NCBI GenBank assembly: GCA_002869275.1
Contig: PKTF01000078.1
Span: forward strand, 1,839 to 65,838
DNA from: Ignavibacteria bacterium
GTDB taxonomy: Bacteria > Bacteroidota > Ignavibacteria > SZUA-365
DNA: 64,000 bases
Direction: 5' to 3'
Shown here one piece after another: positions 11,310 through 62,358 of this stretch. The first letter of the stretch is position 1, and each line of letters starts with the position of its first letter. The translations under genes were made by a program, and so were the position numbers. The notes under the pieces were generated by a model. That model saw nothing but the letters and a program-made list of their open reading frames with translations. It was not told the DNA's origin and did no database searches.

Positions 11310-11333
11310 CGTCGCTCCAAGTTCTTGTTTTTT

Positions 11334-15760: not shown

Positions 15761-15785
15761 ACTGAACGCCTTTCCACACAAAGCG

Positions 15786-18731: not shown

Positions 18732-18825
18732 CCGGGTCTGATTGACTTTTCTTTCTGATTGCCTTACTCTGAGTGCATTCGAATCAGAGAAAAATCTCCT
18801 CAAATACTGTCTCGGAGGATATATC

Positions 18826-22146: not shown

Positions 22147-24279
22147 ATGATGAACCTCCGTTCCGTAATCACTCTTTCCGTTCTTTTTCTCATCACGGTA
22201 TGCACATCGCATGCCCAGCAATCGGAGCACGCCGTACTGGAAAACGGTACGATGTGGACCTTCGATAATCCCCCGGTGGAGTATTTTTCCGAGACCTATG
22301 ATTTTTCGCCTGACGGCGAGTGGTTCGATGACGTACGCATGTCGGCGCTGCGCTTCGCCAACCACTGCTCGGCATCATTCATCAGTGCCGAGGGACTCGT
22401 GATGACCAATTTCCATTGCGGTATCGACGCCGTGCAGGAAGTCACACGCGAGGGCGAGGATTTGCGTCGAGATGGTTTCTATGCAGCGACCGCCGCGGAT
22501 GAGCGCCGTGTGCCCGATCTGTTTGTCGAGCAACTCGTCGGCATCGAGGATGTGACCGAGGAGGTCATCGGTGCGATGGCTTCGGCTGAAGATGCTTCCG
22601 CCGCGATGGAACTGCGGGCGAAGGCCATCGCTGAAATTGAAACACGCATGAGCGAGGCTCCCGTCCGCTGCCAGGTGGTGACGTTTTACAACGGCGCGCG
22701 CTTCTCCGCGTATCTTTACAAACGATATGATGATGTCCGCCTCGTGTTTTCGAGCGAACTCGGCTTCGCGTTCTTCGGTGGCATCTATGACTTCTGGGCC
22801 TACCCGCGCTACTCCTTCGACTGCGATCTGTTTCGTGTCTACGAAAACGGTGAGCCGATGAAGCCCGAGCATTATTTCCACTGGAGCGAAAAGGGCGCGG
22901 CTCCGGGTGAAGCGATCTTCGTCGTGGGCAACCCCGGTCGCACCGGCAGGCTCGTCACGGCCGACATACTGGAATTCGAACGTGATCATCGCGTACCCTT
23001 TGTAGTCGATCTGCTGACGGACGCGATGGAAGAGATGAAGGAACAGATCCGTTCGAATCCGGAAAGCGCCGGCGAGAAGTTCGACCAGTATTTCGGTATC
23101 GTCAATTCGCAGGAAGCCTATGCGGGACGGTTGATTGGTCTGCGCGACAACGAGTTGATCGAACGCCGCCGGGCCTTCGACGAGCGCTCCCGCGAGGCGG
23201 TGCGCAGCGATCCGGATCTTGAAAAGAAATATGGTACGCTGTGGGACGATATTCGTGCGCTGACGACGAAGCAGAAGGCCCTGGCGCCGGATCTGTACGC
23301 GCTGCGCACGAGCGGGCTCGGAAACAGTGCCTACATCGTCCGTGCCAGCGCGATCGTTACCTGGATCGAGCAAACGGCTCTTCCCGAAGAACAGCGAAGC
23401 AAGAGCTACCGGGGTGAAGCGGCTGAGCTGCAGCGCAGGCAGCTGCTGCGTCCGCTGGAGAGTGATCCTGTGACGGACGAGCGCGGCTTCACTCAGCAGC
23501 TGCAGCGGATGCAGAACATCCTCGGCGCGAACGATCCGCTCATGCAGCAAGCGCTGCAGGGATCGGATCCCGCAACTGCGGCGAAGCGCATGCTCTCGGA
23601 GACGAAGCTGACGGATACGGAGGCGATCAAGTCACTCCTGGATAACGGTGATCTGGAAGCATGTGCGGATCCCTTCATTCGCCTCGCGCGAGTTATGAAT
23701 ACGCGTGGAGCGAAAGCCGCGACGGCGAATGCTCCGCTGGCCGCGGAGCTGGAGCACAAGCGTCAGATGCTTGGATCCGCGCTGTACGCGATCTATGGCA
23801 ACGCCATTCCACCAGACGCCACATTCACCCTGCGTATCTCCGACGGCATTGTCGACGGGTATGAATACAACGGGACGGTTGCCCCATCGTACACGACCTT
23901 CTATGGCATGTACGACCGCTACCACTCCTTCGATGATGATCCCGGCCGTTCCTGGGATGCCATGATGAACGGCAATGCCTGGGAGCTGCCGCCGCGCTGG
24001 AAGAATCCGCCGGCATCCTTTGATCTTTCGACGCCGATCAACTTCGTGTCCACCTGCGACATCATCGGAGGAAATTCAGGGAGCCCGGTGATCAACAAGA
24101 ACAAGGAAATTATCGGACTGGCTTTCGACGGCAATATCGAAAGCCTGCCCGGCGAATTCATCTTCGCACCCGACAAGGCCAACCGCACCATCTCTGTGCA
24201 TTCACAGGGCATCATCGAATCGCTGCGCCATATCTATAACGCCACGCGTATCGTAGAGGAAATTGAGCGCAGCCGTTAG
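22147..24279 (+). CDS. S46-family dipeptidyl-peptidase (DPP7/DPP11-like)
   Basis: N-terminal MWTFDNPPVEYFSETYDFSPDGEWFDDVRMSALRF…GLVMTNFHCG (catalytic His region). C-terminal IGGNSGSPVINKNKEIIGLAFDGN (catalytic Ser). Length 710 aa, with signal peptide. Confidence 0.8.
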   Translation: MMNLRSVITLSVLFLITVCTSHAQQSEHAVLENGTMWTFDNPPVEYFSETYDFSPDGEWFDDVRMSALRFANHCSASFISAEGLVMTNFHCGIDAVQEVTREGEDLRRDGFYAATAADERRVPDLFVEQLVGIEDVTEEVIGAMASAEDASAAMELRAKAIAEIETRMSEAPVRCQVVTFYNGARFSAYLYKRYDDVRLVFSSELGFAFFGGIYDFWAYPRYSFDCDLFRVYENGEPMKPEHYFHWSEKGAAPGEAIFVVGNPGRTGRLVTADILEFERDHRVPFVVDLLTDAMEEMKEQIRSNPESAGEKFDQYFGIVNSQEAYAGRLIGLRDNELIERRRAFDERSREAVRSDPDLEKKYGTLWDDIRALTTKQKALAPDLYALRTSGLGNSAYIVRASAIVTWIEQTALPEEQRSKSYRGEAAELQRRQLLRPLESDPVTDERGFTQQLQRMQNILGANDPLMQQALQGSDPATAAKRMLSETKLTDTEAIKSLLDNGDLEACADPFIRLARVMNTRGAKAATANAPLAAELEHKRQMLGSALYAIYGNAIPPDATFTLRISDGIVDGYEYNGTVAPSYTTFYGMYDRYHSFDDDPGRSWDAMMNGNAWELPPRWKNPPASFDLSTPINFVSTCDIIGGNSGSPVINKNKEIIGLAFDGNIESLPGEFIFAPDKANRTISVHSQGIIESLRHIYNATRIVEEIERSR

Positions 24280-29606: not shown

Positions 29607-30296
29607 TCAGGGGAAAAATATGAGTTTGATGAGCAGCCCCGCCAAAACGAAGCCGAACACAGGTTTAATGACTTTCGCACCGCCCTTGATGGCCAGGCCG
29701 GCGCCGGTCCAGGCCCCGGTGATGTTGGCCAGCCCCATCGGCAGCGCGATGGTCCAGTATACCTCTCCTCCCAGCACGAAGGCGATGATCGCGGCGTAGT
29801 TGCTGCCAAGATTGAGCAGCTTGGCGTGCGCGGTGGCACGCAGGAAACCAAAACCGAACATGAGGACGAAACCGAATGCGAGAAAGCTGCCGGTGCCGGG
29901 CCCAAAGAAACCGTCATAGAAGCCGATACCGAAGGCAAACAGGGCTGCGATCGCGAGCTGCCGTGTTGACAACGAGTTGACATTGTCTTTGATGCCGAAG
30001 TCTTTTCGCAGGAAGGTGACCGCCGCCACGATGATAATCAGCACAGGAATAATGGCCTCGAGTGAGGAATCGGGAATCTGCAGCACCGTCCATGCGCCGG
30101 TATAGGATCCGGCGAATGCGGAGATAAAGCCGACGATTCCAAGTTTCAGCAGCACATGTCCGCTGCGGATATAGCGCAGGGTGCTGAAGGATGTGCCGAT
30201 GGCGCTCTGCACCTTGTTTGTAGCCAATGCCACATGCGGAGGTACTCCAACTGCCAGGAGGGAAGGCAGGGAAATCAGTCCGCCCCCGCCGGCCAT
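29607..30296 (-). CDS. TauE/SafE-family sulfite/anion exporter
   Basis: Gly-rich TM helices MAGGGGLISLP…GPGTGSFLAFGFVLMFG are typical of TauE. The conserved N-terminal helix continues upstream in frame with no canonical start; see findings. Confidence 0.7.
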   Translation of the reverse strand: MAGGGGLISLPSLLAVGVPPHVALATNKVQSAIGTSFSTLRYIRSGHVLLKLGIVGFISAFAGSYTGAWTVLQIPDSSLEAIIPVLIIIVAAVTFLRKDFGIKDNVNSLSTRQLAIAALFAFGIGFYDGFFGPGTGSFLAFGFVLMFGFGFLRATAHAKLLNLGSNYAAIIAFVLGGEVYWTIALPMGLANITGAWTGAGLAIKGGAKVIKPVFGFVLAGLLIKLIFFP

Positions 30297-36580: not shown

Positions 36581-36967
36581 TCACTTGATCACCTTCTTGA
36601 TCGCATCTTCATCGAAGCCGATTGTGACTCCGTTCGGACCGCGGACAATGGGGCGTTTTATGAGCATGGGATCTGCAGAGAGCGCTGAAAGGGCTGCTGC
36701 CTTGTTCAGTCCATCGACCTTTACCTTCCAATTGCCATCCTTGTAGGCTGCACCAGAAGTGTTGAACGCCTTGCGGTAACGATCAACACTCCCAAGTGCC
36801 TGGTTGATAAGCGTCTTGGGAGGAGTTTCTTCACGGACATCGCGGAAGACGCATGCCACGCTCTTGCTCTCGAGAAACTTCAAGGCCTTCCGTGTGGTAC
36901 CGCAGGTTTTCAGTCCCCACACTTCTACAGCGTTCCCAGCTGGTGCCGGTTTCTTCACCTTGCTCAT
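36581..36967 (-). CDS. ArsC/Spx/YffB-family protein (thioredoxin-fold)
   Basis: [16 protein letters not shown]-terminal redox-motif region typical of the ArsC_YffB family. 128 aa. Confidence 0.65.
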
Positions 36968-37434
36968 TTCTTTGTCGTGCGCTTCCTTGCTGCGGGTTTC
37001 TTGACGGCCGGCTTCTTGGCGACAGCCTTCTTCGCTACGGGCTTTTTCGCGGCGGCTTTCTTGACGGCCGGCTTCTTGGCGACAGTCTTTTTCGCTGCCG
37101 GTTTCTTCGCAGCGGCTTTCTTGACGGCCGGCTTCTTGGCGACAGTCTTCTTCGCTACCGGTTTCTTCGCAGCGGCTTTCTTGACGGCCGGCTTCTTGGC
37201 GACAGTCTTCTTCGCTACCGGTTTCTTCGCAGCAGCTTTCTTGACGGCCGGCTTGCGGGCTACGGTCTTCTTTGCTGCGGCTTTCTTGACGGCAGGTTTC
37301 TTAGCAACAGCTTTTTTCACTGCCGGCTTCTTTGCCGCGGGCTTTTTCGCGGCGGGCTTTTTCGCGGCGGGCTTTCTGGCCGCCGGCTTTTTGGCCGCCG
37401 GCTTTTTCGCAGCAGTCGTTTTTGCCATGGTCAT
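36964..37434 (-). CDS. histone H1-like Lys/Ala-rich repeat nucleoid protein
   Basis: 156 aa, almost entirely (A/V/P/T)KK repeats: [20 protein letters not shown] x4-5. Stop overlaps the ArsC-family start (ATGA). Confidence 0.75.
36985..37400. repeat. 60-bp tandem DNA repeats (~5-6 copies plus degenerate flanking copies) encoding the KAP-rich repeats
   Basis: Repeating unit ttcttgacggccggcttcttggcgacagtcttcttcgctaccggtttcttcgcagcggct read directly. Confidence 0.8.
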
Positions 37435-37498
37435 TCCTCCTTGATATGAGAAGTGGGTGAATGTGACTCTGTGTCACGCTTTCATTTCTCTGATGCAA

Positions 37499-38389
37499 TC
37501 AGGATAGCGGTCGGTCCGGAGTGTATTCCTCCAGTGCCTTGCGAATCACCGCCTTTGTGGACGGATGGAAATTTCCATCAAGGATCCACTGAATATAATC
37601 GCGGTCGCGTTCGATGATTTTGGATAGAGATGTGCCACGGTGTTTGCCAAACGTTATAATAACATTATTTCCGTCTCGCACAAGTTTCCCTTCCTCGTCC
37701 AGCCACGAAGGGTCTTTCGGATGCACGACGGATTCGAGTTCGGCAATTGTATGCGGCAAATCTTCGTATCGTTCGAGCTGTGCGAACAAGACGTCGGCTG
37801 TCGCCTGCACGTCGGCCATCGCACCGTGTGCGCCGCTATGTTCGCGCGCGCAGTAGAACTGCAGTGCAGCTGAGAGGTCCCGTGGTTCACGTGAATGAAA
37901 AATCGTTTGCACGTCGATGATGTGTCGTCCTTCCAACAAGAACTTTTCGCCGCAGCGCTGAAACTCCTGCAGCAGCAGCGGCAGGTCGAAGCGTCGCAGG
38001 TTGAAACCGGAAAGGTCGCAGTTGTCGAGAAACTCGATCAGACGCGTTGCGAGTTGCTGGAAGGTGGGGGCGAGTGCAACATCGGCATCGGTAATGCCAT
38101 GCACCGCTGTGGCCTGTTCGGGAATGAGAATGGTGGGGTTGATGCGATGTTCAAAGCTGCGCGTCGTTCGATTCGGGAGATACTTCAGCACTGCGATCTC
38201 TACGATACGATCACTTTGCGTGTTGATACCGGTCGTCTCCAGATCGAAGAAGGCCAGTGGCCGCTTGAGTTCCAAAGCGTGTTGCGTCGGTGTCGACGTC
38301 ACGATGCTGAAGATACCTCCATGAGCACATGGATGGAAAAAGATGCAGCGCGGCGGGTATGAGATGTTGTCCGCCTGTTTTCTTTCCAA
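37499..38389 (-). CDS. DEDDh 3'-5' exonuclease (DnaQ/epsilon-like) with C-terminal DUF3820-like domain
   Basis: Exo I FFDLETTG, Exo II HGITDAD…, Exo III HGAMADVQATADVL. C-terminal FGKHRGTSLSKIIERDRDYIQWIL. Start uncertain. Confidence 0.7.
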   Translation of the reverse strand: MERKQADNISYPPRCIFFHPCAHGGIFSIVTSTPTQHALELKRPLAFFDLETTGINTQSDRIVEIAVLKYLPNRTTRSFEHRINPTILIPEQATAVHGITDADVALAPTFQQLATRLIEFLDNCDLSGFNLRRFDLPLLLQEFQRCGEKFLLEGRHIIDVQTIFHSREPRDLSAALQFYCAREHSGAHGAMADVQATADVLFAQLERYEDLPHTIAELESVVHPKDPSWLDEEGKLVRDGNNVIITFGKHRGTSLSKIIERDRDYIQWILDGNFHPSTKAVIRKALEEYTPDRPLS

Positions 38390-38480
38390 AACAATTTACG
38401 TAATAATGCAGGAAAGCGAAATACGTTTTAATGAAGCGAAGCTGTGCGCAACGGCTTCAACGCAGCACGAGGAGAGCAGC

Positions 38481-39551
38481 ATGATCAGATTACCTCAGCG
38501 CAGAGCGAAACGGAAATTCAAGGATGCGGGGCTTCCGCCCGGCACAGTCATATACACCGGTGAAGCGGAGGCGCAGACGGCGCAGCTGCGCGAACTCCAG
38601 TACACACGTGACGACGTTACCGACGAAGAAGTGGCGATCGAGGATCTTCAGCGTCCGCCTGAAGACAGCGGTGTCTGGTGGCTGAGCGTGCAGGGTGTCT
38701 CGGATGTCACGAGCGTGCAGCACATCGGTGAGTTGTTCGGCTTGCACATCCTCACCCAGGAGGATATTGTCAACGCGGCTCACCGACCGAAGCTGGAGCG
38801 CTTCGACAACTATCTCGTCGTCATACTGCGAGCCGTGCGTCCGGATGACAGCGGACTCCTCCATGAAGAGAATATGACCCTGGTGCTCACCGACCACAGC
38901 GTGCTGTCATTCAGTGAAACCATGCAGGACATCTTCTATCCCAACCGGGAGCGTATCAAGGCGACCAACGGAAGATTTCGCGCACGTGGCGCAGACTACC
39001 TTCTCTACACGCTGATCGATTCCGTTGTCGATCACTATGTGAATACACTTGAACAGATCGACGATCAGATTGCACTGCTTGAAGAAGAGGTTGTGCAGCA
39101 GGCCGATGGCGAGACCGTCGGAAAGCTCCACGATCAGAGACGCAATCTTATGCAGCTGCGTAAAGCAGTCTTGCCCCTGCGCGAAATCTTGCTCCGGCTG
39201 CAGAGAGATGAGACCGACATGATCGGTGAGGACATCAGCATGTTCCTCCACGACGTGGAGGACCATCTCCTGCATGTTCTCGACAGCATCGAGAGCGGTC
39301 GCGAGAACATCAGCGGATTGCTCGACCTCTACATGTCCTTCGAAAGCAATCGCATGAACGAGGTGATGAAAGTACTCACGATCATCGCGACGGTATTCAT
39401 TCCGCTTACCTTCATCGCCGGGGTGTATGGAATGAACTTCGACGTCATGCCGGAACTGCGCATCCCCTGGGCCTACCCCGCCGTACTCTCACTGATGGCT
39501 GCCGTCGGTGTCGTCATGTTTCTTTTCTTCCGGCGCAAACACTGGTTGTGA
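38481..39551 (+). CDS. corA: magnesium/cobalt transporter CorA
   Basis: C-terminal two TM helices with the YGMNF (GMN) motif. Start trimmed to MIRLPQRR…. Confidence 0.85.
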   Translation: MIRLPQRRAKRKFKDAGLPPGTVIYTGEAEAQTAQLRELQYTRDDVTDEEVAIEDLQRPPEDSGVWWLSVQGVSDVTSVQHIGELFGLHILTQEDIVNAAHRPKLERFDNYLVVILRAVRPDDSGLLHEENMTLVLTDHSVLSFSETMQDIFYPNRERIKATNGRFRARGADYLLYTLIDSVVDHYVNTLEQIDDQIALLEEEVVQQADGETVGKLHDQRRNLMQLRKAVLPLREILLRLQRDETDMIGEDISMFLHDVEDHLLHVLDSIESGRENISGLLDLYMSFESNRMNEVMKVLTIIATVFIPLTFIAGVYGMNFDVMPELRIPWAYPAVLSLMAAVGVVMFLFFRRKHWL

Positions 39552-39636
39552 GTCGGGTGTGTTTCTCATTTCAATTCTGATTATTTTGCGTTTGTTCAAC
39601 TCACACATCCTTATGCAACGGACTGACTGATAAATC

Positions 39637-39933
39637 ATGCAGAAGAAAAGTTATACACGGACGGGTCGTTCCTGCCGCGTCACGTTTTACCTGCCCGCCG
39701 ATGTGAAGGCTTCGCGCGCATCGCTTTGCGGCGAATTCAACGACTGGAATCCTGATGCACATGTCATGGCAAAGAGGAAAGATGGTACGTTTTATGTTTC
39801 GCTGTATCTCGATGCAGGGAAGTCGTACCGCTATCGGTTTCTGCTTGATGATACGCGCTGGGAAAACGACTGGGAAGCAGAATCCTACATCCCCAATGAT
39901 CACGGTTCCGATGATTCATTGATCACTCTGTAA
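39637..39933 (+). CDS. stand-alone CBM48/AMPK-beta-like glycogen-binding (isoamylase N-terminal) domain protein
   Basis: VTFYLPADVKASRASLCGEFNDWNPDAHVMAKRKDGTFYVSLYLDAGKSYRYRFLLDDTRWENDW matches the CBM48 pattern. Confidence 0.6.
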   Translation: MQKKSYTRTGRSCRVTFYLPADVKASRASLCGEFNDWNPDAHVMAKRKDGTFYVSLYLDAGKSYRYRFLLDDTRWENDWEAESYIPNDHGSDDSLITL

Positions 39934-40130
39934 CAGCATCGACATCGGCGTTTGACACGGTGCCTCGCGAGGCACCGTTCGTATTATTCGTGAATCCACC
40001 GCCGCGCATCGGCATCATTCAGGAAAATAATGGGAATTTCTCCTCGAGTACGGTTGAGATAGAGTTGTTCAACGCCTACATTTCTTCTGATCGGTATGAT
40101 CATACATCACCCTCACAGAGAAGGCATCTC

Positions 40131-41519
40131 ATGCGCAGCATTTATTTCCTTGCGTTGATCGCGTGCGCCACATCGATTCTGCATGCACAGGAACATGATT
40201 TTATCGAAGGACCATTTGCATCTCCACAGGAACTGACGGAAACCTGCCTTGGCTGTCACGAAGAAGTCGGTGACGCCGTCATGGCAACGCGGCATTGGAA
40301 TTGGCTTGGAAAAGAATTCGAATCCGGTGAACGGGGCGTGATTCGCCTCGGGAAGCAGAACTTCATCAACAACTTCTGCATCGGGGTCACATCGAACTGG
40401 CCGCGCTGTACCAGCTGTCATATCAGCTACGGCTGGAAGGATGGCAGTTTTGATCACAGCGATCCGAACAACATCGACTGCCTCGTCTGCCATGACCAGA
40501 CAGGGACGTACAAAAAGACACCCACCGGAGCAGGCATGCCCGCAGAGGACGTCGATCTCGTTACCGTGGCGCAGAGCGTCGGTACGCCAACACGCGGCAA
40601 CTGCGGCGTCTGTCACTTTGACGGTGGCGGCGGGAGCGGTGTCAAGCATGGCGACATGGACGATAGCATGTATGAGCCATCGGCCGAACTTGATGTGCAC
40701 ATGGGCGGACTGGATTTCGAATGTACGGAATGCCACACAACAGAAGACCACATGATCGCAGGCGCGGGACACGGTTCGATGGCTGAGGATATCAACCATA
40801 TTTCCTGCATGGACTGTCACGACGACGAAGTGCATGAGAAGTCCATCCTGAACAACCACATCTCATCAGTCGCCTGTGAAACCTGTCACGTTCCCGCCTT
40901 CGCACGACAGGAAGCGACCAAGACCTGGTGGGACTGGTCCGCCGCGGGTGAAGACCGAGAGGCGGAAAAAGACAAGTATGGAAAGGAAACCTACAGCAAG
41001 AAAAAGGGCGAGTTTCGCTGGGAGAAAAACGTCGTTCCCACCTACAAGTGGACGCGCGGCAAGGCCGAGTATTACGTGCAGGGTGATCCGGTGAAGGCGG
41101 GCGCGGTTGTGGAGCTCAATCGTATCATCGGCGGTATCGACGATGCCGAAGCTAAAATCGCACCGTTCAAGGTGATGCGTGGCAAGCAGCCGTATGACAA
41201 GGAACACGGCATCCTGATCGTGCCGCATCTCTTCGGGAAAGACGGATACTGGAACACATATGACTGGGATTCCGCGTCACGTATCGGAATGACGGCCGCA
41301 GGACTCGACTATTCAGGATCGTACGGCTTTATCGAAACGGAGATGTCGTGGCCGATCAATCACATGGTGGCACCTGCGAAACAGGCACTGCGCTGTACGA
41401 GCTGTCACGGAAAGCGCGGAGAGCGCCGCCTGGATTGGAAGGCGCTCGGATACCGGAAGGATCCCATCACCCGCGGGACGCGTTTCGAGCAGGGATTGGC
41501 CAAAGCTCCCGAAGAATAG
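40131..41519 (+). CDS. octaheme c-type cytochrome, tetrathionate-reductase (OTR) family-like, periplasmic
   Basis: Signal peptide MRSIYFLALIACATSILHA. Eight CxxCH motifs: CLGCH, CTSCH, CLVCH, CGVCH, CTECH, CMDCH, CETCH, CTSCH. No T9SS tail. Gly-rich CHFDGGGGSGVKHG segment as in OTR-type proteins. Confidence 0.7.
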   Translation: MRSIYFLALIACATSILHAQEHDFIEGPFASPQELTETCLGCHEEVGDAVMATRHWNWLGKEFESGERGVIRLGKQNFINNFCIGVTSNWPRCTSCHISYGWKDGSFDHSDPNNIDCLVCHDQTGTYKKTPTGAGMPAEDVDLVTVAQSVGTPTRGNCGVCHFDGGGGSGVKHGDMDDSMYEPSAELDVHMGGLDFECTECHTTEDHMIAGAGHGSMAEDINHISCMDCHDDEVHEKSILNNHISSVACETCHVPAFARQEATKTWWDWSAAGEDREAEKDKYGKETYSKKKGEFRWEKNVVPTYKWTRGKAEYYVQGDPVKAGAVVELNRIIGGIDDAEAKIAPFKVMRGKQPYDKEHGILIVPHLFGKDGYWNTYDWDSASRIGMTAAGLDYSGSYGFIETEMSWPINHMVAPAKQALRCTSCHGKRGERRLDWKALGYRKDPITRGTRFEQGLAKAPEE

Positions 41520-41555
41520 TCCGCACAGCGCACAATCAATTTATGGGTGTAGGAT

Positions 41556-41600
41556 AAAAGAAAAGAGGTTGTCGTGAGACAACCTCTTTTTCCTCTCTTC
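41556..41600. terminator. bidirectional Rho-independent terminator between the cytochrome and ahpC
   Basis: aaaagaaaa-gaggttgtcgtgagacaacctc-tttttcctc. Confidence 0.65.
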
Positions 41601-41626
41601 ATCTTCTTTTCCTGCGTTGGAGGGGA

Positions 41627-42178
41627 TCAGACTGTTCCGGTCGGATCCGTCAGATAGTCGCTGCCGGCTTCCCAGTTGCACGGGGTGAGTTCACCAGACT
41701 GCAGAGCCTCGAGCACCCGAAGAGTCTCAGGGATATTGCGGCCTACGTCGAGTCCGTGTACCGTCGTCCACTGGATGATACCATCGGGATCGACGATAAA
41801 CGTGGCACGCAGCGCGACGCCGTCTTCCTTGTGCAGTACGCCAAGCGCTGACGCCAGTTCACGCTTCGCATCGGCGAGCATGGGGAACGGAAGGTCTTTC
41901 AGATCAGGATGGCTGTTGCGCCATGCCAGGTGGACATAATGTCCATCGGTGCTTGCACCGAGAACCTGTGCGCCCTTCGCTTCGAAATCCGCATTCAGTT
42001 TTCCGAACTCGGCGATCTCGGTCGGACACACAAACGTGAAGTCACGCGGCCAGAAAAAAACCACCTGCCACTTACCGGCATAGGTCTTGTCGGTGAGATC
42101 GGCAAATTCTTTTCCAGGCTCCGTGTTCACCACTGCTTTCAGAGAAAACTCAGGAAACGTATCTCCTACGGTAAGCAT
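41627..42178 (-). CDS. ahpC: 2-Cys peroxiredoxin (AhpC/Prx1 family)
   Basis: FTFVCPTE peroxidatic Cys motif and a resolving Cys near the C-terminus (TPCNW). Confidence 0.9.
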   Translation of the reverse strand: MLTVGDTFPEFSLKAVVNTEPGKEFADLTDKTYAGKWQVVFFWPRDFTFVCPTEIAEFGKLNADFEAKGAQVLGASTDGHYVHLAWRNSHPDLKDLPFPMLADAKRELASALGVLHKEDGVALRATFIVDPDGIIQWTTVHGLDVGRNIPETLRVLEALQSGELTPCNWEAGSDYLTDPTGTV

Positions 42179-42474
42179 TACTGTTCTCCTGTCACTAAAA
42201 ATATTGTAGATGTATATGTTTGATGTTTATCGGCGAATGTGGTGAAAAGGCATCACATATATCCGATGTTGGTATAACGTCGGTGGTACAAAAACAATTC
42301 CTGAGGAAGCGAATTTCTTCACGACTCGGTGCATCATACGTATGTGGCGGTGAGGTCCGAAGCAGGATCTTCGTGCGTGCCGCTACAGGGGGATTTACCA
42401 GGTATTGAACGATATTACACAGGCTGTTTACATTTGTAGCTGCAGAAACAGAACACGAACAGGAGTTGATCATC

Positions 42475-44349
42475 ATGGCTGAAGAACAACACAGCAAGGC
42501 ACAGGAATTCGAATACAAAGCTGAGATGAAGCAGCTGCTTCACCTCATTATCCATTCTCTTTATACCCACCCCGAGGTGTTTCTCCGGGAATTGATTTCG
42601 AACGCCTCGGACGCATTGAACAAAGTACGTTTCATGCAGGTCACCGACGCCCAGGTGCATCAGCCGGATGCGGAGCTGGGTATCAGTATCGACATCGACG
42701 AGAAGAATCATAACCTCTCGATAGAGGACAGCGGTATCGGCATGACGCGCGACGATCTGATCGGACGAATCGGAACGGTCGCCAGTTCGGGTACCCTGGA
42801 ATTCCTTTCGGCGACGAAGGGTGGTGAAAAGAAAATGGATGGCAGCGAACTGATCGGACAGTTCGGCGTGGGTTTCTATTCCGTGTTCATGGTCACCGAC
42901 GAAGTCACGATCGAAACCCGACATGCAGATCCGGACGCAAAGGCCTGGCGGTGGACATCGAAAGGCGAAGGCACATATACCATCGAGGAAATCGACCGCA
43001 AGGAACGTGGTACGCGTATCTTTTTCAAGCTGAAGGAAGAGGCGAAAGAGCTGGCGAGCGAGTACCGCATCAAGGACATCATCAAGAAGTATTCCAACTT
43101 TGTCGATTTTCCGATCCATGTCGGCAAGGACAAGGTCAACAGCGTTGCAGCGCTGTGGCAGCGTAAGAAAGAGGACTTGAAGAAGGAGGAACTGGACGAA
43201 TTCTACAAGTTCGTCGCAGCCGACTTCCGCGAACCGCTCGACCATCTGCACCTGCACATCGAAGGCCGCGTCAACTTCAAAGCGCTGATCTTTATTCCGG
43301 GCGAAGCCCCGATGGGCTATTTCGATCCGCGTGAAGAGAAGTCGCTGCACCTGTACGTGAACCGCGTCTTCATCCAGGACGACTGCAAGGATCTTGTGCC
43401 GGAGTATCTTCGCTTCGTGAAAGGCGTCGTCGATACCGAGGACCTGCCGCTGAACGTTTCACGCGAGGTGACGCAGTCGAGCCCGGTTACAGCGAAAATG
43501 CGTGAGATCATCACCAATCGCGTTCTCGGATTACTCGAGGATTGGGCCAAGTCGGATATCGACCGATACAACGACTTCTTCCGGAAGTTCGGTAACTACC
43601 TCAAGCTCGGCATTACAACGGAATTTGCGAGCAAGGATCGCATCGTGGACCTCCTTCGATTCGAAACCAGCAAGCTTGAAGCAGGGAAGGTCACTTCACT
43701 CAAGGACTATGTCGCGAACATGGGTGAGGAGCAGAAGGAAATCTACTACATCACCGGCGAAGGCCGCGACGTGGTGGAGAAACATCCGAATCTGGAATAC
43801 TTCCGGAAAAATGCCGTGGAAGTGCTGTTCCTCACCGATCCGGTGGATCTTTTCACCGTGACCTCACTGCCAGAGTATGATGGCAAAAAGATGGTCTCCA
43901 TTGAGAAAGCCGATATCGATCTCGGAAGTACGCAGACGGAGGGGGATGAAGCGGAAGCATTGAAGGGCAAGGAAGCCAAGGATATCCTCACACGTATCAA
44001 GGAAATCCTCGGTGATCGCGTAGAAGATGTGATCGAATCGAAACGACTCGTTGACAGTGTCGCCACACTCGTGGTGGGTGACCAGGGTATGGATGCGCAG
44101 ATGGAGCGCATGATGAAAATGATGGACAAGAATTTCAGCGGGGCGAAGAAAATCCTCGAAGTGAACCTGAAGCATCCGCTGGTGAAGAATCTCGCTGCGA
44201 TCAACGAGCGCGATCACGAAAGCCCGGTACTCAAGGATTCAGTGGAGCAGATTTACGACGGCGCGCTGCTGGTGGAAGATAACCTGCAGAATCCGATGGA
44301 TTTCGTACGCCGGGCGATGGAGTTTATGGAGAAGGCAACGAGGGGGTAA
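42475..44349 (+). CDS. htpG: molecular chaperone HtpG (Hsp90)
   Basis: Bergerat ATPase fold motifs: LRELISNASDALNKVRF, GQFGVGFYS. SD aggag 9 nt upstream of ATG (MAEEQ). Confidence 0.9.
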   Translation: MAEEQHSKAQEFEYKAEMKQLLHLIIHSLYTHPEVFLRELISNASDALNKVRFMQVTDAQVHQPDAELGISIDIDEKNHNLSIEDSGIGMTRDDLIGRIGTVASSGTLEFLSATKGGEKKMDGSELIGQFGVGFYSVFMVTDEVTIETRHADPDAKAWRWTSKGEGTYTIEEIDRKERGTRIFFKLKEEAKELASEYRIKDIIKKYSNFVDFPIHVGKDKVNSVAALWQRKKEDLKKEELDEFYKFVAADFREPLDHLHLHIEGRVNFKALIFIPGEAPMGYFDPREEKSLHLYVNRVFIQDDCKDLVPEYLRFVKGVVDTEDLPLNVSREVTQSSPVTAKMREIITNRVLGLLEDWAKSDIDRYNDFFRKFGNYLKLGITTEFASKDRIVDLLRFETSKLEAGKVTSLKDYVANMGEEQKEIYYITGEGRDVVEKHPNLEYFRKNAVEVLFLTDPVDLFTVTSLPEYDGKKMVSIEKADIDLGSTQTEGDEAEALKGKEAKDILTRIKEILGDRVEDVIESKRLVDSVATLVVGDQGMDAQMERMMKMMDKNFSGAKKILEVNLKHPLVKNLAAINERDHESPVLKDSVEQIYDGALLVEDNLQNPMDFVRRAMEFMEKATRG

Positions 44350-50765: not shown

Positions 50766-50947
50766 TCGCCCGAAAAAGGTGCTACCTGTAGTGTAATGCA
50801 CACAGTATACGAAAATCCTTTAATTGAGAATACATGCTGCGGAGAGGGAAGGACTGCTGCATTGTCCGCCCCTGTGAATTTTCCGTATCTTTGACGATCT
50901 ACGCTTCGGCGTTGCGCACAGTCCTTGCACCATTTCAGGTTGACACC

Positions 50948-53077
50948 ATGTTACGTCGTGTACACTTTGTCATCACCACCGTGATCGTTTTCTTCGCCGT
51001 TTCGCTGACAGCGGACGAAGGCATGTATCCCCTCAGTGAGATTTCGCGTCTTGATCTGCAGTCCAAGGGACTCGAGATCCCCGTTTCCGAGCTGTACAAT
51101 CCCGACGGCATCAGCCTCGTGGATGCCATCTGCCAGGTGGGAGGTGGGACAGGTGAATTCGTTTCCGAAGACGGACTGATCCTCACCAACCACCATATCG
51201 CGTTTTCCGGTGTCACCACCGCCAGCACACCCGAGCATGATTATCTTCGTGAGGGTTTCACGGCGCGAGCACGGAACGAGGAAATTCCCGCGGAAGGCTA
51301 CATCTGCCGCATTACCGAAGCATATCGTGACGTGTCGGAGGAAGTGCTCAGCGTGGTCACTCCTTCCATGACGCCTGCCGAGCGCAGTGACGCCATTCGA
51401 GACAGGATGAGGACGTTGGCGAAGAAAGAAGAAGGAGACCGGGAAAACATCTCCTGCGATGTCTCGGAGATGTTCCCGGGTAAAACCTACGTCCTGTTCA
51501 CATACCGCATCATCAGCGATGTGCGCCTCGTGTACGTGCCGCCTCTGAGCATCGGGAATTATGGCGGTGAAACCGACAACTGGATCTGGCCTCGCCACAC
51601 GGGCGACTTCTCTTTCCTGCGTGCTTACGTGGCTCCCGACGGTTCGACTGCCGCCTACGCGGAAGAGAACGTTCCCTACAAGCCCAAGCGCTTCATCAAG
51701 GTTGCGCCTGAGGGCGTCAGCGAAGGCGACTTCGTGTTCATTCTCGGTTATCCCGGCCGCACGTACCGACATAAGACTGCGGATTATATCACGCTCTACG
51801 AACGCACCATTCTTCCGTACCTGACCAGCCGATATGATTACATGATCGAGTCGATGGAAGAACTGTCGAAAAACGATCGTGCCCTCCAGCTCGAATTTGC
51901 GAACATGATCAAGGGACTGGCCAACGCGACGAAAAACTACAAGGGAAAGATTCAGGGACTGCGTCGTCTCGGACTGGCCGGGAAACGCAGCGCCATCGAA
52001 GCGGAACTGCAGCAATTCATTTCAAACGACCCCGATCTGCAGAAGAAGTATGGAGAGACGCTCACACAGCTGCATGACGTGTACACCGCCTATGAAAATA
52101 CGGCCATGCAGGAGATCGTGATCACGTTGCTGCGCCGAAACGGCTACTTCAACCTGCTGTCGTCGGTGACGAACGCGGTGGATAAGGGTGAGCTCAACGA
52201 TGAAAAACGTGAACGCATGAACAAGTTGATCGAACGGCAGTATGCCGATCTGCACTCCGATGCGGAACTCGATTTCCTTGCAACGCTGATTCGTGATTTC
52301 AAAAAGGTACCCCGGCATCTGCAGCCGGCGTCGGTCGAAACGCTGATCGGTGCGCATGCAGACGACGACGCTGCTGCCGTCAATGCGGTCAAGGAGGCAT
52401 TCCGGAAGAGCGCCCTCGCTACGGCAGACGGAATGCAAACTGTCACCAGCTGGGACCGCGACCAGCTTGCCCTGTCAAAGGACCCTTTCATCGCGCTTGC
52501 ACTCGAAGTCAACCTGCTGAACCAGGAAATCGTGGAACGGCGTCGTACGCGCGACGGTGAACTCAAACGTCTCGAGGCGGAGTTTATCGATGCGAAAATG
52601 GCGTGGCAGCAAAAGGACTTCATTCCCGACGCCAACAGTACCCTGCGCTTGACATACGGCTATATCCGCGGTTATGCTCCGGCTGACGCCACGTATTATT
52701 CGCCGCTGACAACCCTGTCTGGTGCTATCGAAAAACACACCGGTGAGGAGCCCTTCAATCTCCCCGAGCAGCTTATCGAGTTGTACAACAAGGGTGAGTA
52801 TGACAAGAAATTCGAAGATAAGCTGCTCAAGGACGTACCCGTAGCCATGCTGTATAACATGGACACGACTGGGGGTAACTCCGGAAGTCCGGTACTCAAC
52901 GCCAGGGGCGAACTCGTCGGAGTCAACTTTGACCGTGCGTTCGAGGCGACCGTGAACGACTATCAGTGGAGCGAGGATTACAGCCGCTCAATCGGCGTCG
53001 ATATCCGTTACGTGCTCTTCGTGGCGAAATACCTGGGCAAGGCCGACTTCCTGCTCGGCGAACTCGGCGTAGAATAA
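50948..53077 (+). CDS. S46-family dipeptidyl-peptidase (second paralogue)
   Basis: GLILTNHHIAFSGV (His region) and TGGNSGSPVLNARGELVGVNFDRA (Ser region). Signal/TM at the N-terminus. Confidence 0.8.
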   Translation: MLRRVHFVITTVIVFFAVSLTADEGMYPLSEISRLDLQSKGLEIPVSELYNPDGISLVDAICQVGGGTGEFVSEDGLILTNHHIAFSGVTTASTPEHDYLREGFTARARNEEIPAEGYICRITEAYRDVSEEVLSVVTPSMTPAERSDAIRDRMRTLAKKEEGDRENISCDVSEMFPGKTYVLFTYRIISDVRLVYVPPLSIGNYGGETDNWIWPRHTGDFSFLRAYVAPDGSTAAYAEENVPYKPKRFIKVAPEGVSEGDFVFILGYPGRTYRHKTADYITLYERTILPYLTSRYDYMIESMEELSKNDRALQLEFANMIKGLANATKNYKGKIQGLRRLGLAGKRSAIEAELQQFISNDPDLQKKYGETLTQLHDVYTAYENTAMQEIVITLLRRNGYFNLLSSVTNAVDKGELNDEKRERMNKLIERQYADLHSDAELDFLATLIRDFKKVPRHLQPASVETLIGAHADDDAAAVNAVKEAFRKSALATADGMQTVTSWDRDQLALSKDPFIALALEVNLLNQEIVERRRTRDGELKRLEAEFIDAKMAWQQKDFIPDANSTLRLTYGYIRGYAPADATYYSPLTTLSGAIEKHTGEEPFNLPEQLIELYNKGEYDKKFEDKLLKDVPVAMLYNMDTTGGNSGSPVLNARGELVGVNFDRAFEATVNDYQWSEDYSRSIGVDIRYVLFVAKYLGKADFLLGELGVE

Positions 53078-55943: not shown

Positions 55944-58900
55944 TCAGTGAATCACGAGCAGGTTCGTGGTCTGAACCTGTGCGCCGGACTGCACGCGCAC
56001 CCGGTAATTGCCCGTAGGCAGGCTGCCGGTGTCGAGATTAACTGTATGCGAACCGGCGGTCAGCTCTGCACGCATGCTCTGCAGCACGAGACGTCCGAGG
56101 TTGTCAAAAACATCGATCTGTGTACCTGCACGCGATTCCAGCGTCAGTCCGAGTGTGAGTCCGCGGCTGGAGCTGGTCGAAATCGGATTCGGGTACATGT
56201 AATCGATATGGAATCCATTCGCTGCCACGGGACGTTCCACCGAGGTGGTGCCGTAGGGATCGAAGTTCGAACGGAACTTGAAAATGTCGATGCCCGCGGT
56301 GTAGACGTCCGAAAGAGATGTATTGGAGAATGACGTCGATGTGGAGACGTTGGCGAAGTTGCTGGGTACGGCCTGCACCGTCCAGCTTTGAGCCATGTCG
56401 TCGGATACCCAGGCATTTGTCCCCTGGATGAACCAGATACGACGCCCGTTTTCTTCCATCTCAACGGTACCGCCAGTGCTGACCTGAATGGTATTGCGCT
56501 GCAGCCACGTGTCACCACCATCTTCGGTGACAGCAAGCATGTTGGTGCCGCCCAGGTTGGTTTGTGTGGTGAAACGGATGATGCCCCGCTTGCTGTCGGC
56601 GAATGCCATGTCCACCGAATGCTTGCTCGGCGTGGTGATACTCGTCCAGCTCTGACCGCGGTCAGTCGAGCGGTAGATCTTGCTGTTGTTCGTACCGAAC
56701 CACAGCGTGTCGCCCGCGGCGTCGTATGCATTGTTCCATCCGGCTTCACCCGTTGGGGCATTTACCGGATTCGCGAGCGGTGTCCATGTAGCACCTCCGT
56801 CGTCGGTAGTCGCGATACCCCACACACCGTCCTTCGGATCGCCCTGCAGAATACCGTTATTGATGTCGTACATGTGTATCCAGTTTACGAAACCGGTGAA
56901 ACCGGCCACGGAAGTACCGCTCCAGGTCGAACCGCTGTTGACAGTACGGAAAACTTCCGCTGCGCCGGTGCTCGGACCTGTACCCACCAGGGCGACGTTA
57001 TTCGTTACGGCGTCGATGCAGTAGACACCCTTGCCCGAGGGGAAGCCCGAACTGTTGCCGACGCTCCACGAGCCGCCGCCGTTGAGACTGCGAACGAAAT
57101 AATCACGGCTGGAGACATTTGCGGTTCCCCAGACGGAAGTGACCGAAGCGGCGTCGATGGACGTGAAGTAGGGTGCGCCGAAATTCATCGAGGTGTGCCA
57201 GGCATCGTTGAGGAATATGCTGGCACGGCCCATGAAGTAGTCCACATATTCACCATCGATGATTTCCATGCGCACGGGAATGTACCCTTCCGAGGTTTCC
57301 GGTTCATCGGAGAGCGCAATGTCGAATTCCACCGTTTTGGTTCCGAAGGTCTCGATGACACCGAGAGGAAAATCGTTTGCATCGGTGGAGATCGAAGGAT
57401 CATCGAGATTGACGCGCAGGATGGCATTCTCCGAGGTGGGAGCGAGAACATTTTCCACCACGACTGTGACGTGTGCCGTCTGTCCCGGTTCGGAAAAGCG
57501 CGAACCGCTTTCGTAAGAGATGGCGAAGCTTTTCATGCGGACGCCGGGGATGTCGGTCAGATTTTCATTGAGAGATACAGCTTTGAATGCGTTGATGCGT
57601 CCGTAGCGCTTGCTTGCCGGCGAGGCACCGAAGCGATCAGACGTCACGCGGATCTGCGCGGCAACCTGGTCGGGTGTCCAATCCGGATGTACAGACATGA
57701 CCAGCGCGGCGACACCGGCCGCCAGCGGGGCGGAGAAGGATGTACCGGTCGGGCTCGTGTAGCTGCCGCCCTTGCGCGTCGTGGTGATGCCGTTGCCGGG
57801 TGAGTAGACGTGGACGGAAGTGCCGTAAGTGCACCACTGTGAGGCGTTACCGTTGGATTCCACCGAACCCACGTTCAGCACGTGGTCGAGTGCCGATGGT
57901 GTGTGCGGGATATAGTCGTTATCCAGCGGATCGTTGCCTGAGGAACCGACCACGAGTGAACCCATGGCGGTGACGTCATCGACGATATCCTGAAGGGCCT
58001 TGACGATCGGACCAGTGCCTCCCCAGCTGCAGTTGATGATGTGGGCACCCATCTGCGCTGCATAGAGAATTCCGTCATAACCCGCGGCAATGCCTGTCGA
58101 ACTGTTGGCCGCGGCCTTGATGGCGAGGATTTTGGAGCTGAACGAACTGCCCGCGACACCCGTTGCGTTGTCGGTGCGTGCTGCGGCACAGCCCGATGTG
58201 TTGGTGCCATGGCCGATCGCGCCGTCCATGGGGTTGTTATCGGGTATGGGACTCTGTGAACTGCCGTCACCGATGAAATCCCAGCCGTGCCAGTCGTCGA
58301 CCTTACCGTTATTGTCATCGTCGATGCCGTTGTCCTTCAACTCCCCGTTCGTACCCCATTCACCGGGATTGGTCCAGATGTTTTCCGCGAGGTCGGGGTG
58401 CGTCCAGTCCACGCCCGAATCCACGTCGCCGATGATGATTGTGGAATCGCCTTTCGTGATGTCCCAGGCTTCCTTGAGCTTCATCACATCAATAGCCCAC
58501 TGCTGTGCGAGCCGCGTGTCGTTGGGAGTGTAATGGAAGGGGAAGATGTAGTACGGTTCGGCGTATTCCACGCTCGGATCGTTGCTGACTTCCATGGCCA
58601 GCAGCGAGGGATTGTCGCCTGATGTATAGCGTACTTTCACCATGCGGTCGACGTTGTACCGCGGTCGCGCGGCTTTCTGCAGAGCGGTTTCTTTGTTCGT
58701 GTTGAAGGGCTCGACCTTTTCCGCGCCAATGCGTTCCAGCAGCTGATCGAGGCTTTGTATTCCGAGGCGCGCGCCGTCCGTCGTAAAGGATTGCTGTTCG
58801 CGCAGCTTGATAATCAGAAGGTTGGGAACGGTCTGCAGACGGCCTTTCTCCGCGGAAGCGGTACGCGGTGCATCGCGTTCGGGACTATCTGCCTGCAATT

Positions 58901-58952
58901 CGACAGTGCACAACAGCAACGCTGCCGCGCAAATAAGGGAAAGAATTTTCAT
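55944..58952 (-). CDS. S8 subtilisin-family peptidase fused to BNR/Asp-box beta-propeller and T9SS C-terminal sorting domain
   Basis: Catalytic Asp (GDVDSGVDWTHPDL), His (HGTNTSG) and Ser (GTSFSAPLAAG). Asp-box repeats SxDxGxTW x6 (NSGSTWS, TDDGGATWT, TDRGQSWT, TEDGGDTWL…). CTD YMYPNPISTSS…GNYRVRVQ. Confidence 0.85.
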   Translation of the reverse strand: MKILSLICAAALLLCTVELQADSPERDAPRTASAEKGRLQTVPNLLIIKLREQQSFTTDGARLGIQSLDQLLERIGAEKVEPFNTNKETALQKAARPRYNVDRMVKVRYTSGDNPSLLAMEVSNDPSVEYAEPYYIFPFHYTPNDTRLAQQWAIDVMKLKEAWDITKGDSTIIIGDVDSGVDWTHPDLAENIWTNPGEWGTNGELKDNGIDDDNNGKVDDWHGWDFIGDGSSQSPIPDNNPMDGAIGHGTNTSGCAAARTDNATGVAGSSFSSKILAIKAAANSSTGIAAGYDGILYAAQMGAHIINCSWGGTGPIVKALQDIVDDVTAMGSLVVGSSGNDPLDNDYIPHTPSALDHVLNVGSVESNGNASQWCTYGTSVHVYSPGNGITTTRKGGSYTSPTGTSFSAPLAAGVAALVMSVHPDWTPDQVAAQIRVTSDRFGASPASKRYGRINAFKAVSLNENLTDIPGVRMKSFAISYESGSRFSEPGQTAHVTVVVENVLAPTSENAILRVNLDDPSISTDANDFPLGVIETFGTKTVEFDIALSDEPETSEGYIPVRMEIIDGEYVDYFMGRASIFLNDAWHTSMNFGAPYFTSIDAASVTSVWGTANVSSRDYFVRSLNGGGSWSVGNSSGFPSGKGVYCIDAVTNNVALVGTGPSTGAAEVFRTVNSGSTWSGTSVAGFTGFVNWIHMYDINNGILQGDPKDGVWGIATTDDGGATWTPLANPVNAPTGEAGWNNAYDAAGDTLWFGTNNSKIYRSTDRGQSWTSITTPSKHSVDMAFADSKRGIIRFTTQTNLGGTNMLAVTEDGGDTWLQRNTIQVSTGGTVEMEENGRRIWFIQGTNAWVSDDMAQSWTVQAVPSNFANVSTSTSFSNTSLSDVYTAGIDIFKFRSNFDPYGTTSVERPVAANGFHIDYMYPNPISTSSSRGLTLGLTLESRAGTQIDVFDNLGRLVLQSMRAELTAGSHTVNLDTGSLPTGNYRVRVQSGAQVQTTNLLVIH

Positions 58953-62147: not shown

Positions 62148-62358
62148 AAGCAATCCAATAGCTATGTGTAAAAATCGGTTGGCTAAAGTGACGTAATATA
62201 CGCTTTGCGTCCGCCAAACGTAAGGGAGTTGTCCGTACCCGTTTACAGCTCGAATGCCTGGTCTCCAGGAACCGGCAATATCCGGCCATCTGCATTTCCT
62301 CACATCCCGATTCTCCGTACTTTTATGGATTCATGTTACCCGATGACAAGGAACCGTC

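Follow-up and report, generated by a model that had tools for sequence, protein, structure and literature searches.

An octaheme cytochrome of the tetrathionate reductase family in an Ignavibacteria genome and a stand-alone CBM48 gene, very probably its neighbor by inherited gene order

On a stretch of 64,000 nucleotides from an Ignavibacteria bacterium (contig PKTF01000078.1 of assembly GCA_002869275.1; the whole stretch is hereafter called the window), a gene for a periplasmic octaheme c-type cytochrome is located downstream of a small gene for a 98-residue protein with the carbohydrate-binding module fold CBM48. The analysis described below indicates that, very probably, the cytochrome is a standard octaheme tetrathionate reductase (OTR) and the CBM48 gene is unrelated to it, the two being adjacent by inherited gene order. 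The CBM48 gene is regarded as a neighbor by descent because the two products are predicted to reside in different compartments, because the two genes appear to carry separate transcription signals, because the adjacency is limited to one syntenic lineage, and because the small gene remains at this site whether or not OTR is there. Our confidence in any one physiological substrate of the window OTR is much lower than in this overall picture. An earlier note, made from the sequence, had placed two open reading frames (ORFs) between positions 39637 and 41519 of the forward strand, and both are present in the ORF listing with these outer ends. The features of the locus are collected in Table 1.

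Table 1. Positions in the window of the two genes, their candidate signals, and the flanking genes.
Feature	Coordinates	Strand	Description
CorA Mg2+/Co2+ transporter gene	38343..39551	+	PF01544, 227.5 bits; TIGR00383, 302.3 bits
CBM48 gene	39637..39933	+	98-residue stand-alone CBM48-fold protein without signal peptide; predicted cytoplasmic alpha-glucan/glycogen-binding module
Terminator-like hairpin	39957..39978	+	stem of 9 bp with 6 G-C pairs, then TCGTATTATT; terminator scan
Promoter-like site TTGAGA-N17-TACATT	40054..40082	+	promoter scan; about 50 nucleotides upstream of the OTR start codon
OTR gene	40131..41519	+	462-residue periplasmic octaheme c-type cytochrome, tetrathionate reductase (OTR) family
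OTR signal peptide	40131-40187	+	residues ~1-19, by inspection
Lys75 codon	40353..40355	+	equivalent of 1SP3 Lys56, the axial ligand of heme 2; codon checked by translation
Heme-2 motif C93-T-S-C-H97	40407..40421	+	same as C74TSCH78 of 1SP3; predicted active-site heme
Palindromic hairpin	41561..41590	.	13 pairs, with A-run and T-run flanks; between convergent OTR and peroxiredoxin genes; terminator scan
AhpC/Prx-type peroxiredoxin gene	41627..42178	-	PF00578, 130.4 bits; convergent with OTR, outside the OTR unit

Identification of the cytochrome

As judged from its sequence, the window cytochrome is a standard member of the known and widely distributed OTR family. The profile search proposed in the earlier note was carried out with TIGR04315 and gave 583.4 bits against the curated cut-off of 375, the match covering positions 4-440 of the 440 in the model. 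The only solved structure matched was that of Shewanella oneidensis OTR (PDB 1SP3), with an E value of 1.6e-151 for residues 22-447 and 52% identity over 432 aligned residues. By direct counting the protein carries eight CxxCH motifs (CLGCH, CTSCH, CLVCH, CGVCH, CTECH, CMDCH, CETCH, and CTSCH, beginning at residues 39, 93, 117, 158, 198, 226, 249, and 422 of 462), and all eight align one-to-one with those of 1SP3. All eight motifs, together with K75 and the NNFC segment (N80, N81, and C83), are invariant in an alignment of 12 sequences made up of the window protein and 11 homologues with 60-86% identity. The family is very large, with more than 7,500 clusters at E<=0.001, many of which are labelled Ignavibacteria, Melioribacteraceae, Bacteroidales, or Chlorobi.

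In the Shewanella enzyme, heme 2 is bound at C74xxC77H78 and ligated by the distant Lys56 (PMC3769277), and this numbering was confirmed by counting along the 1SP3 chain. In the comparison of heme-2 ligation residues that the earlier note had suggested, K75 of the window protein, in the sequence GKQN, pairs with Lys56 in the sequence GKKN of 1SP3, and the segment RCTSCH at residues 92-97 is identical in both proteins. K75 is thus a candidate for the axial ligand of heme 2 in the window OTR. The glycine-rich block pointed out in the earlier note, CHFDGGGGSGVKHG in the window protein and CHFYGGGGDAVKHGD in 1SP3, is also conserved, F163, G165-168, G170, V171, K172, H173, G174, and D175 all being invariant in the 12-sequence alignment; on the aligned sequences this block, CHFxGGGGxxVKHGD, is a signature of the OTR family.

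The position of the start codon affects both the predicted export of the cytochrome and the size of the gap to the CBM48 gene. The mechanical ORF call begins at GTG 39960 and gives a protein of 519 residues, but this start was rejected because the codon falls within the terminator-like hairpin downstream of the CBM48 gene and because the 57 extra residues are unmatched in the homologues, which are 454-465 residues long. From the comparison with these homologues, the true start is ATG 40131. Use of GTG 39960 masks the signal peptide behind the extension encoded by 39960-40130. With the start at ATG 40131 the N-terminus reads MRSIYFLALIACATSILHA followed by QE, by inspection a typical Sec signal, and residue 22 onward pairs with residue 5 onward of the crystallized 1SP3 chain. 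A lipoprotein reading of the sequence L-I-A-C at residues 9-12 was also considered and rejected, the cysteine being too near the N-terminus and unconserved in the homologue consensus. Neither TIGR04183 nor PF18962 matched the protein in the Pfam and NCBIfam scans, and no sorting tail of the type IX secretion system (T9SS) was found. The window OTR is of the soluble type, with a signal peptide and with neither a membrane anchor nor a T9SS tail, in agreement with the earlier description of an octaheme cytochrome that has a signal peptide and lacks the T9SS tail.

The earlier note had likened the motif spacing of the cytochrome to that of an OTR/hydroxylamine oxidoreductase (HAO)-like superfamily, and the assignment to OTR was confirmed. 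No HAO, NrfA, or ONR family model matched at E<=0.01 in the Pfam and NCBIfam scans, and other multiheme families matched far below their cut-offs only. Like OTR, the enzymes HAO, NrfA, ONR, and MccA are multiheme proteins of the periplasm with N or S oxyanions as substrates, and a five-coordinate heme in the N-terminal module is common to OTR, MccA, and cytochrome c554 (PMC9250108). The label HAO-like is nevertheless a loose one because OTR is a structural outlier with respect to HAO, NrfA, ONR, and MccA, and is without the C-terminal oligomerization helices (PMC9250108).

The small CBM48 protein

The identification of the 98-residue protein as a CBM48/AMPK-beta fold, as proposed earlier, was borne out by both profile and structure. 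PF02922 (CBM_48) matched with 29.1 bits, above its cut-off of 22.4, and PF16561 (AMPK1_CBM) with 23.8 bits, below its cut-off of 26.8; most homologues bear the precomputed labels of both families. An AlphaFold model built from the homologue alignment gave a pLDDT of 89 and a pTM of 0.79, and the top matches of this model in Foldseek were the glycogen-binding domains of AMPK beta1 and beta2 (1Z0M, 4YEF, and 4YEE; target-normalized TM-score 0.80-0.89, root-mean-square deviation 1.4-1.9 A); the CBM48 domains of branching enzymes came next. The best match, AMPK beta1 (1Z0M), showed a target-normalized TM-score of 0.85-0.89 and a root-mean-square deviation of 1.4-1.7 A. The family profile of the small protein likewise matches starch/glycogen-binding modules among the PDB sequences. 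The small ORF is real, and the CBM48/AMPK-beta assignment, with the predicted model in support, is right.

The earlier note had named lack of conservation in related genomes as the finding that would speak against this ORF, and the ORF proved to be widely conserved. A total of 161 homologous clusters were found, mostly of 97-101 residues and including one identical NCBI entry from a metagenome-assembled genome (MAG) of Ignavibacteria, and the gene is present at no fewer than 560 loci among the GTDB species genomes (that is, at least 560). The stand-alone family is spread over Ignavibacteria/Bacteroidota, Chloroflexota, Desulfobacterales, Acidobacteriota, Actinomycetota, Zixibacteria, and others. 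Among 15 aligned members the mean column identity is 69% and 26 columns are invariant, including the WENDW motif; W37, W75, and W79 are invariant, and the FNxW and W-rich segments are kept. The N-terminus of the small protein is MQKKSYTRTGRSCRVTF, and the protein is predicted to be cytoplasmic because none of the 15 aligned members has a hydrophobic N-terminal segment. An ORF of 100 residues on the opposite strand (39601-39903) overlaps the small gene.

The fold is the same beta-sandwich of about 85-98 residues as in the AMPK beta glycogen-binding domain and in the N-terminal CBM48 of GlgB and isoamylase. The small protein differs from these modules in that it stands alone, with neither a kinase scaffold nor a GH13 catalytic domain attached; it is about 20% identical to them in sequence, and the invariant WENDW is peculiar to the small family. 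The protein most likely binds a glycogen-like alpha-glucan. In some Chloroflexota and Zixibacteria (L014, L032, L061, L073, and L084; loci carrying the small gene are numbered from L001) the CBM48 gene is followed by a glucokinase gene, sometimes within a few bases (for example L032, 6301-7323), and elsewhere the stand-alone gene is located beside the gene for a glycogen debranching enzyme or GH77. These neighbors hint at a role of the CBM48 family in alpha-glucan metabolism. We tentatively propose, as a possibility rather than a probability, that this family of about 98 residues represents an uncharacterized cytoplasmic protein of the glycogen granule, for instance a scaffold or regulator similar to the AMPK-beta glycogen-binding module.

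Signals between and around the two genes

The gap between the CBM48 and OTR genes is 197 bp, in place of the 84 bp given in the earlier note; that figure fits the gap of 85 bp between the CorA stop (39551) and the CBM48 start (39637). Within the 197 bp, a terminator-like hairpin begins 24 nucleotides (23 intervening bases) past the CBM48 stop, with a folding energy of -16.6 kcal/mol and z = -3.0. At the same site in L001, L004, L009, and L010, a G+C-rich hairpin of different sequence is present, so that the element looks like a conserved terminator of which the structure, not the sequence, is kept. Closer to the OTR start codon lies the promoter-like pair of Table 1, and a pair of the form TTGAG-N17-TAC(C/A)TT is aligned in most of the seven intergenic regions compared, being degenerate in L010 and mis-registered in L004. 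From its conservation, this pair is a putative promoter of OTR.

On the other side, the palindromic hairpin between the convergent OTR and peroxiredoxin genes folds with -21.5 kcal/mol (z = -4.75), has counterparts in L001 and L004, and probably acts as a terminator in both directions. With a predicted terminator after the CBM48 gene, a promoter-like motif before OTR, and a hairpin after it, the OTR gene appears to form a self-contained transcription unit that has a putative promoter of its own and a putative terminator on each side.

An Rfam scan of 37400-42600 with permissive thresholds detected no known riboswitch or small RNA in the 197-bp gap and no family at threshold anywhere in this region. 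Two sub-threshold chance matches, BTnc231 and MIR5229, both fell on the hairpin downstream of OTR. The match to the Bacteroides small RNA BTnc231 (41532-41656; 24.5 bits against a gathering score of 80.4, E = 0.071) most likely reflects a chance similarity of the terminator stem-loop.

Conservation of the gene order

The gene order was compared at 84 loci that contain the small gene, 80 of them of GTDB species level, by searching these loci with six proteins of the window (tblastn). The block shared with relatives consists, in order, of genes for an RNase T-like exonuclease, CorA, CBM48, OTR, peroxiredoxin, and HtpG. Besides the window, OTR adjoins the small gene only in L001, L004, L008, L009, L010, and L013 among the 84 loci, and the full block is common to each of them. 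Among the 80 GTDB loci, 73 of which extend at least 1.8 kb downstream, the adjacency was found in four, all close relatives. CorA is syntenic in the same six loci and in L005. Its true start is probably downstream of 38343, and both CorA and peroxiredoxin are variably present within the block.

Five relatives keep the block without OTR, the fixed site of which corresponds to 39934-41626 in the window. In three of these (L005, L006, and L011) the CBM48 gene is followed directly by the peroxiredoxin gene, and in the other two (L007 and L012) by HtpG. The identity of HtpG to that of the window is 79-91% in the OTR-bearing loci versus 75-78% in the OTR-less relatives; the OTR-bearing loci have the closest HtpG, and the distribution is therefore compatible with OTR having been gained once or lost once. 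The L005 and L011 contigs, labelled 'uncultured Chromatiales bacterium', have the block of the Ignavibacteria type, their exonuclease, CBM48, peroxiredoxin, and HtpG being 66-78% identical to the window proteins; the Chromatiales label probably reflects an error of binning or naming.

The remaining CBM48 loci, about 70 in number and belonging to Chloroflexota, Desulfobacterales, Acidobacteriota, Actinomycetota, Zixibacteria, and others, include none with OTR adjacent. A Pfam census was made of 115 immediate neighbors in 71 other loci, with the CBM48 ORF forced in. No cytochrome family was detected among the 25 most frequent immediate-neighbor families, and the census included glucokinase (4), MGH1-like hydrolase (3), glycogen debranching enzyme (2), and GH77 4-alpha-glucanotransferase (2). 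The sole multiheme gene within 6 kb of the CBM48 gene among the approximately 70 loci was found in L068 (Ardenticatenaceae, Chloroflexota), where a 572-residue ORF on the reverse strand (10036-11331) carries ten CxxCH motifs and is 30% identical to OTR over 449 residues; a distance of 3.7 kb separates it from the CBM48 gene, which lies on the other strand, and it is treated here as a single chance case. Conversely, homologues of OTR in four other lineages, which share 61-66% identity with the window protein, are encoded by lone genes with unrelated neighbors and without CBM48.

Comparison with characterized members of the family

Within the OTR family, activity is known for two members only, that of Shewanella (PMC4484225) and that of the Beggiatoaceae (PMC6449678). 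The Shewanella enzyme reduces tetrathionate, nitrite, and hydroxylamine in vitro, and its docking partner, downstream of CymA, is the small tetraheme cytochrome STC (PMC4484225). Compared with this protein (SO_4144, 1SP3), the window OTR has the same mature length and the same order and spacing of CxxCH motifs, is likewise soluble with a signal peptide, and is identical in RCTSCH; the Lys56 equivalent K75, NNFC, and CHFxGGGGxxVKHGD are kept, and the identity of 52% extends end to end. The window OTR differs in that a six-residue loop is missing near residue 390 and the C-terminal tail is longer, and it comes from an Ignavibacteria-type MAG while the Shewanella protein is gammaproteobacterial. 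No donor of the CymA or STC type is visible near the window OTR.

The second member with measured activity, BOGUAY_2386 of the orange Guaymas Beggiatoaceae, reached up to 93 umol/min/mg as a tetrathionate reductase and was also active as a nitrite reductase (PMC6449678). Its host is a sulfur-oxidizing gammaproteobacterium, and it is likened here to the window OTR by family membership; as with the window OTR, the flanking genes are unrelated to nitrite reduction (PMC6449678). Of the same phylum as the window is the Otr of the Ignavibacteriae MAG Ch128a, which has been read as reducing tetrathionate or nitrite in the role of a terminal reductase (PMC7509429). In Ch128a the gene forms a cluster with one for cytochrome b561, whereas the window OTR is a lone gene and b561 was not found among the window ORFs scanned.

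By analogy with these enzymes, the OTR pre-protein would be exported via its N-terminal signal peptide, and eight hemes would be covalently attached at the eight CxxCH motifs in the periplasm. Seven of the hemes would form a bis-His electron wire, and heme 2 (C93TSCH97) would be the catalytic center, with Lys75 as axial ligand replacing the histidine of the motif itself, as in Shewanella OTR. Electrons would be supplied by a periplasmic or membrane donor encoded elsewhere, the corresponding chain in Shewanella being CymA to STC to OTR, and the enzyme would reduce small S or N oxyanions, that is, tetrathionate to thiosulfate, and nitrite and hydroxylamine to ammonium. The product of 39637-39933 would be a cytoplasmic CBM48-fold protein of the widespread stand-alone family. 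The adjacency of the two genes would reflect inherited gene order in one Ignavibacteria-type lineage, in which OTR may have been gained or lost between CBM48 and peroxiredoxin within a conserved housekeeping block.

Alternative explanations of the arrangement

Since peroxiredoxin is the immediate downstream neighbor in all the OTR-bearing relatives, OTR reduces nitrite and hydroxylamine in vitro (PMC4484225), and its physiological role is unsettled, the two genes might be taken as a stress-defense pair for detoxification of nitrite, hydroxylamine, or reactive species rather than for respiration. We consider this pairing improbable: the two genes are convergent with a putative bidirectional terminator between them, peroxiredoxin stays where OTR is absent (L005, L006, and L011), and OTR loci elsewhere are without a peroxiredoxin neighbor. 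A detoxifying role of OTR by itself, apart from this pairing, may apply.

Very improbable, and less likely still, is a two-gene operon in which the CBM48 protein would serve OTR as a dedicated partner or adaptor, for instance by tethering the cytochrome to polysaccharide or by coupling the glycogen status to respiration. The genes are adjacent on the same strand, and this arrangement is repeated in seven loci including the window, but all seven share the whole six-gene block, which points to lineage synteny. The small gene is retained without OTR in five relatives, is never adjacent to OTR in the approximately 70 loci of other phyla, and is missing from the four OTR loci of other lineages, so the adjacency is not conserved beyond close relatives. 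In addition, the gap holds, in silico, a hairpin terminator and a conserved promoter-like motif, which argues against co-transcription, and the CBM48 protein is without an export signal while OTR is predicted to be periplasmic, which argues against a shared compartment. Of the two options in the earlier note, a coincidental neighbor or an adaptor, the former is the one that agrees with synteny, terminator, promoter motif, and compartments. There is next to no likelihood of a spurious small ORF, or of an artefact in the heme count or the family assignment, for although the ORF is short, is overlapped by an antisense ORF, and falls below the PF16561 cut-off, its 161 clusters of conserved length and column identity, its numerous GTDB loci, its confident predicted fold, and the direct verification of the heme count all speak for the contrary.

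Several points weigh against the reading of a standard OTR beside an unrelated gene. Both the terminator and the promoter are predictions of the consensus type, and sigma-70 promoters are unlike the Bacteroidota-like ones; read-through from the CBM48 gene into OTR may take place. The heme ligation and substrates proposed for the window OTR are drawn by homology from a protein of 52% identity. The adjacency persists in relatives whose OTR shows only 69-86% identity, and weak selection for linkage would be compatible with this, although the same argument applies to all the housekeeping genes of the block. Finally, no quinol dehydrogenase (NapC/NrfH/CymA type), cytochrome b561, or heme-maturation gene was detected among the window ORFs scanned, and the b561-clustered Otr of the Ignavibacteriae MAG (PMC7509429) has no parallel at this locus.

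Other genes in the window

Two distinct octaheme proteins are encoded in the window, as the earlier note had claimed. The second, at 18742-20196 on the forward strand, has 484 residues, eight CxxCH motifs, and a T9SS C-terminal sorting domain (TIGR04183, 40.3 bits); it gave no match to octaheme family models and no relation to OTR by BLASTP. It is directly preceded by a 992-residue fusion of GH3 glycosidase and beta-lactamase fold (15753-18731) and by a 1079-residue T9SS-tailed protein (12521-15760). From the two octaheme proteins the earlier note had suggested a respiratory-versatile anaerobe or microaerophile; other respiratory genes were not found among the window ORFs scanned. A gene for a membrane protein of the TauE/SafE family (sulfite exporter type) is located about 10 kb from OTR (29607-30296, reverse strand), and no link between the two was seen.

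The remainder of the window consists of housekeeping genes, peptidases, and T9SS cargo. It includes two paralogous S46 (DPP7/DPP11-type) peptidases (22147-24279 and 50834-53077, both on the forward strand) and two tandem subtilases of about 1,000 residues (S8 with sortilin/BNR and T9SS tail; 55944-58952 and 59157-62303, both on the reverse strand), which together suggest a proteolytic lifestyle with secretion via T9SS. At 36964-37434 on the reverse strand, a 156-residue protein composed almost entirely of Lys/Ala/Pro repeats resembles a histone H1-like DNA-binding protein, and the repeats create long spurious ORFs in other frames.

Implications

The OTR family was already known, its genes have already been reported from Ignavibacteria-type genomes (PMC7509429), and any standard annotation pipeline would name the window cytochrome correctly. 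For the in vivo substrate and the electron donor of OTR, an isolated gene without a nearby partner offers no new handle. The outcome is in part corrective, as the start of the OTR ORF and the size of the gap are revised, and the CBM48 neighbor should not be taken as an accessory of OTR.

Within the lineage of the window, OTR behaves as a self-contained gene of gain or loss inside a conserved housekeeping block. The least understood part of the locus is the small gene rather than the cytochrome, and the widespread stand-alone CBM48 family represents a modest lead by itself.

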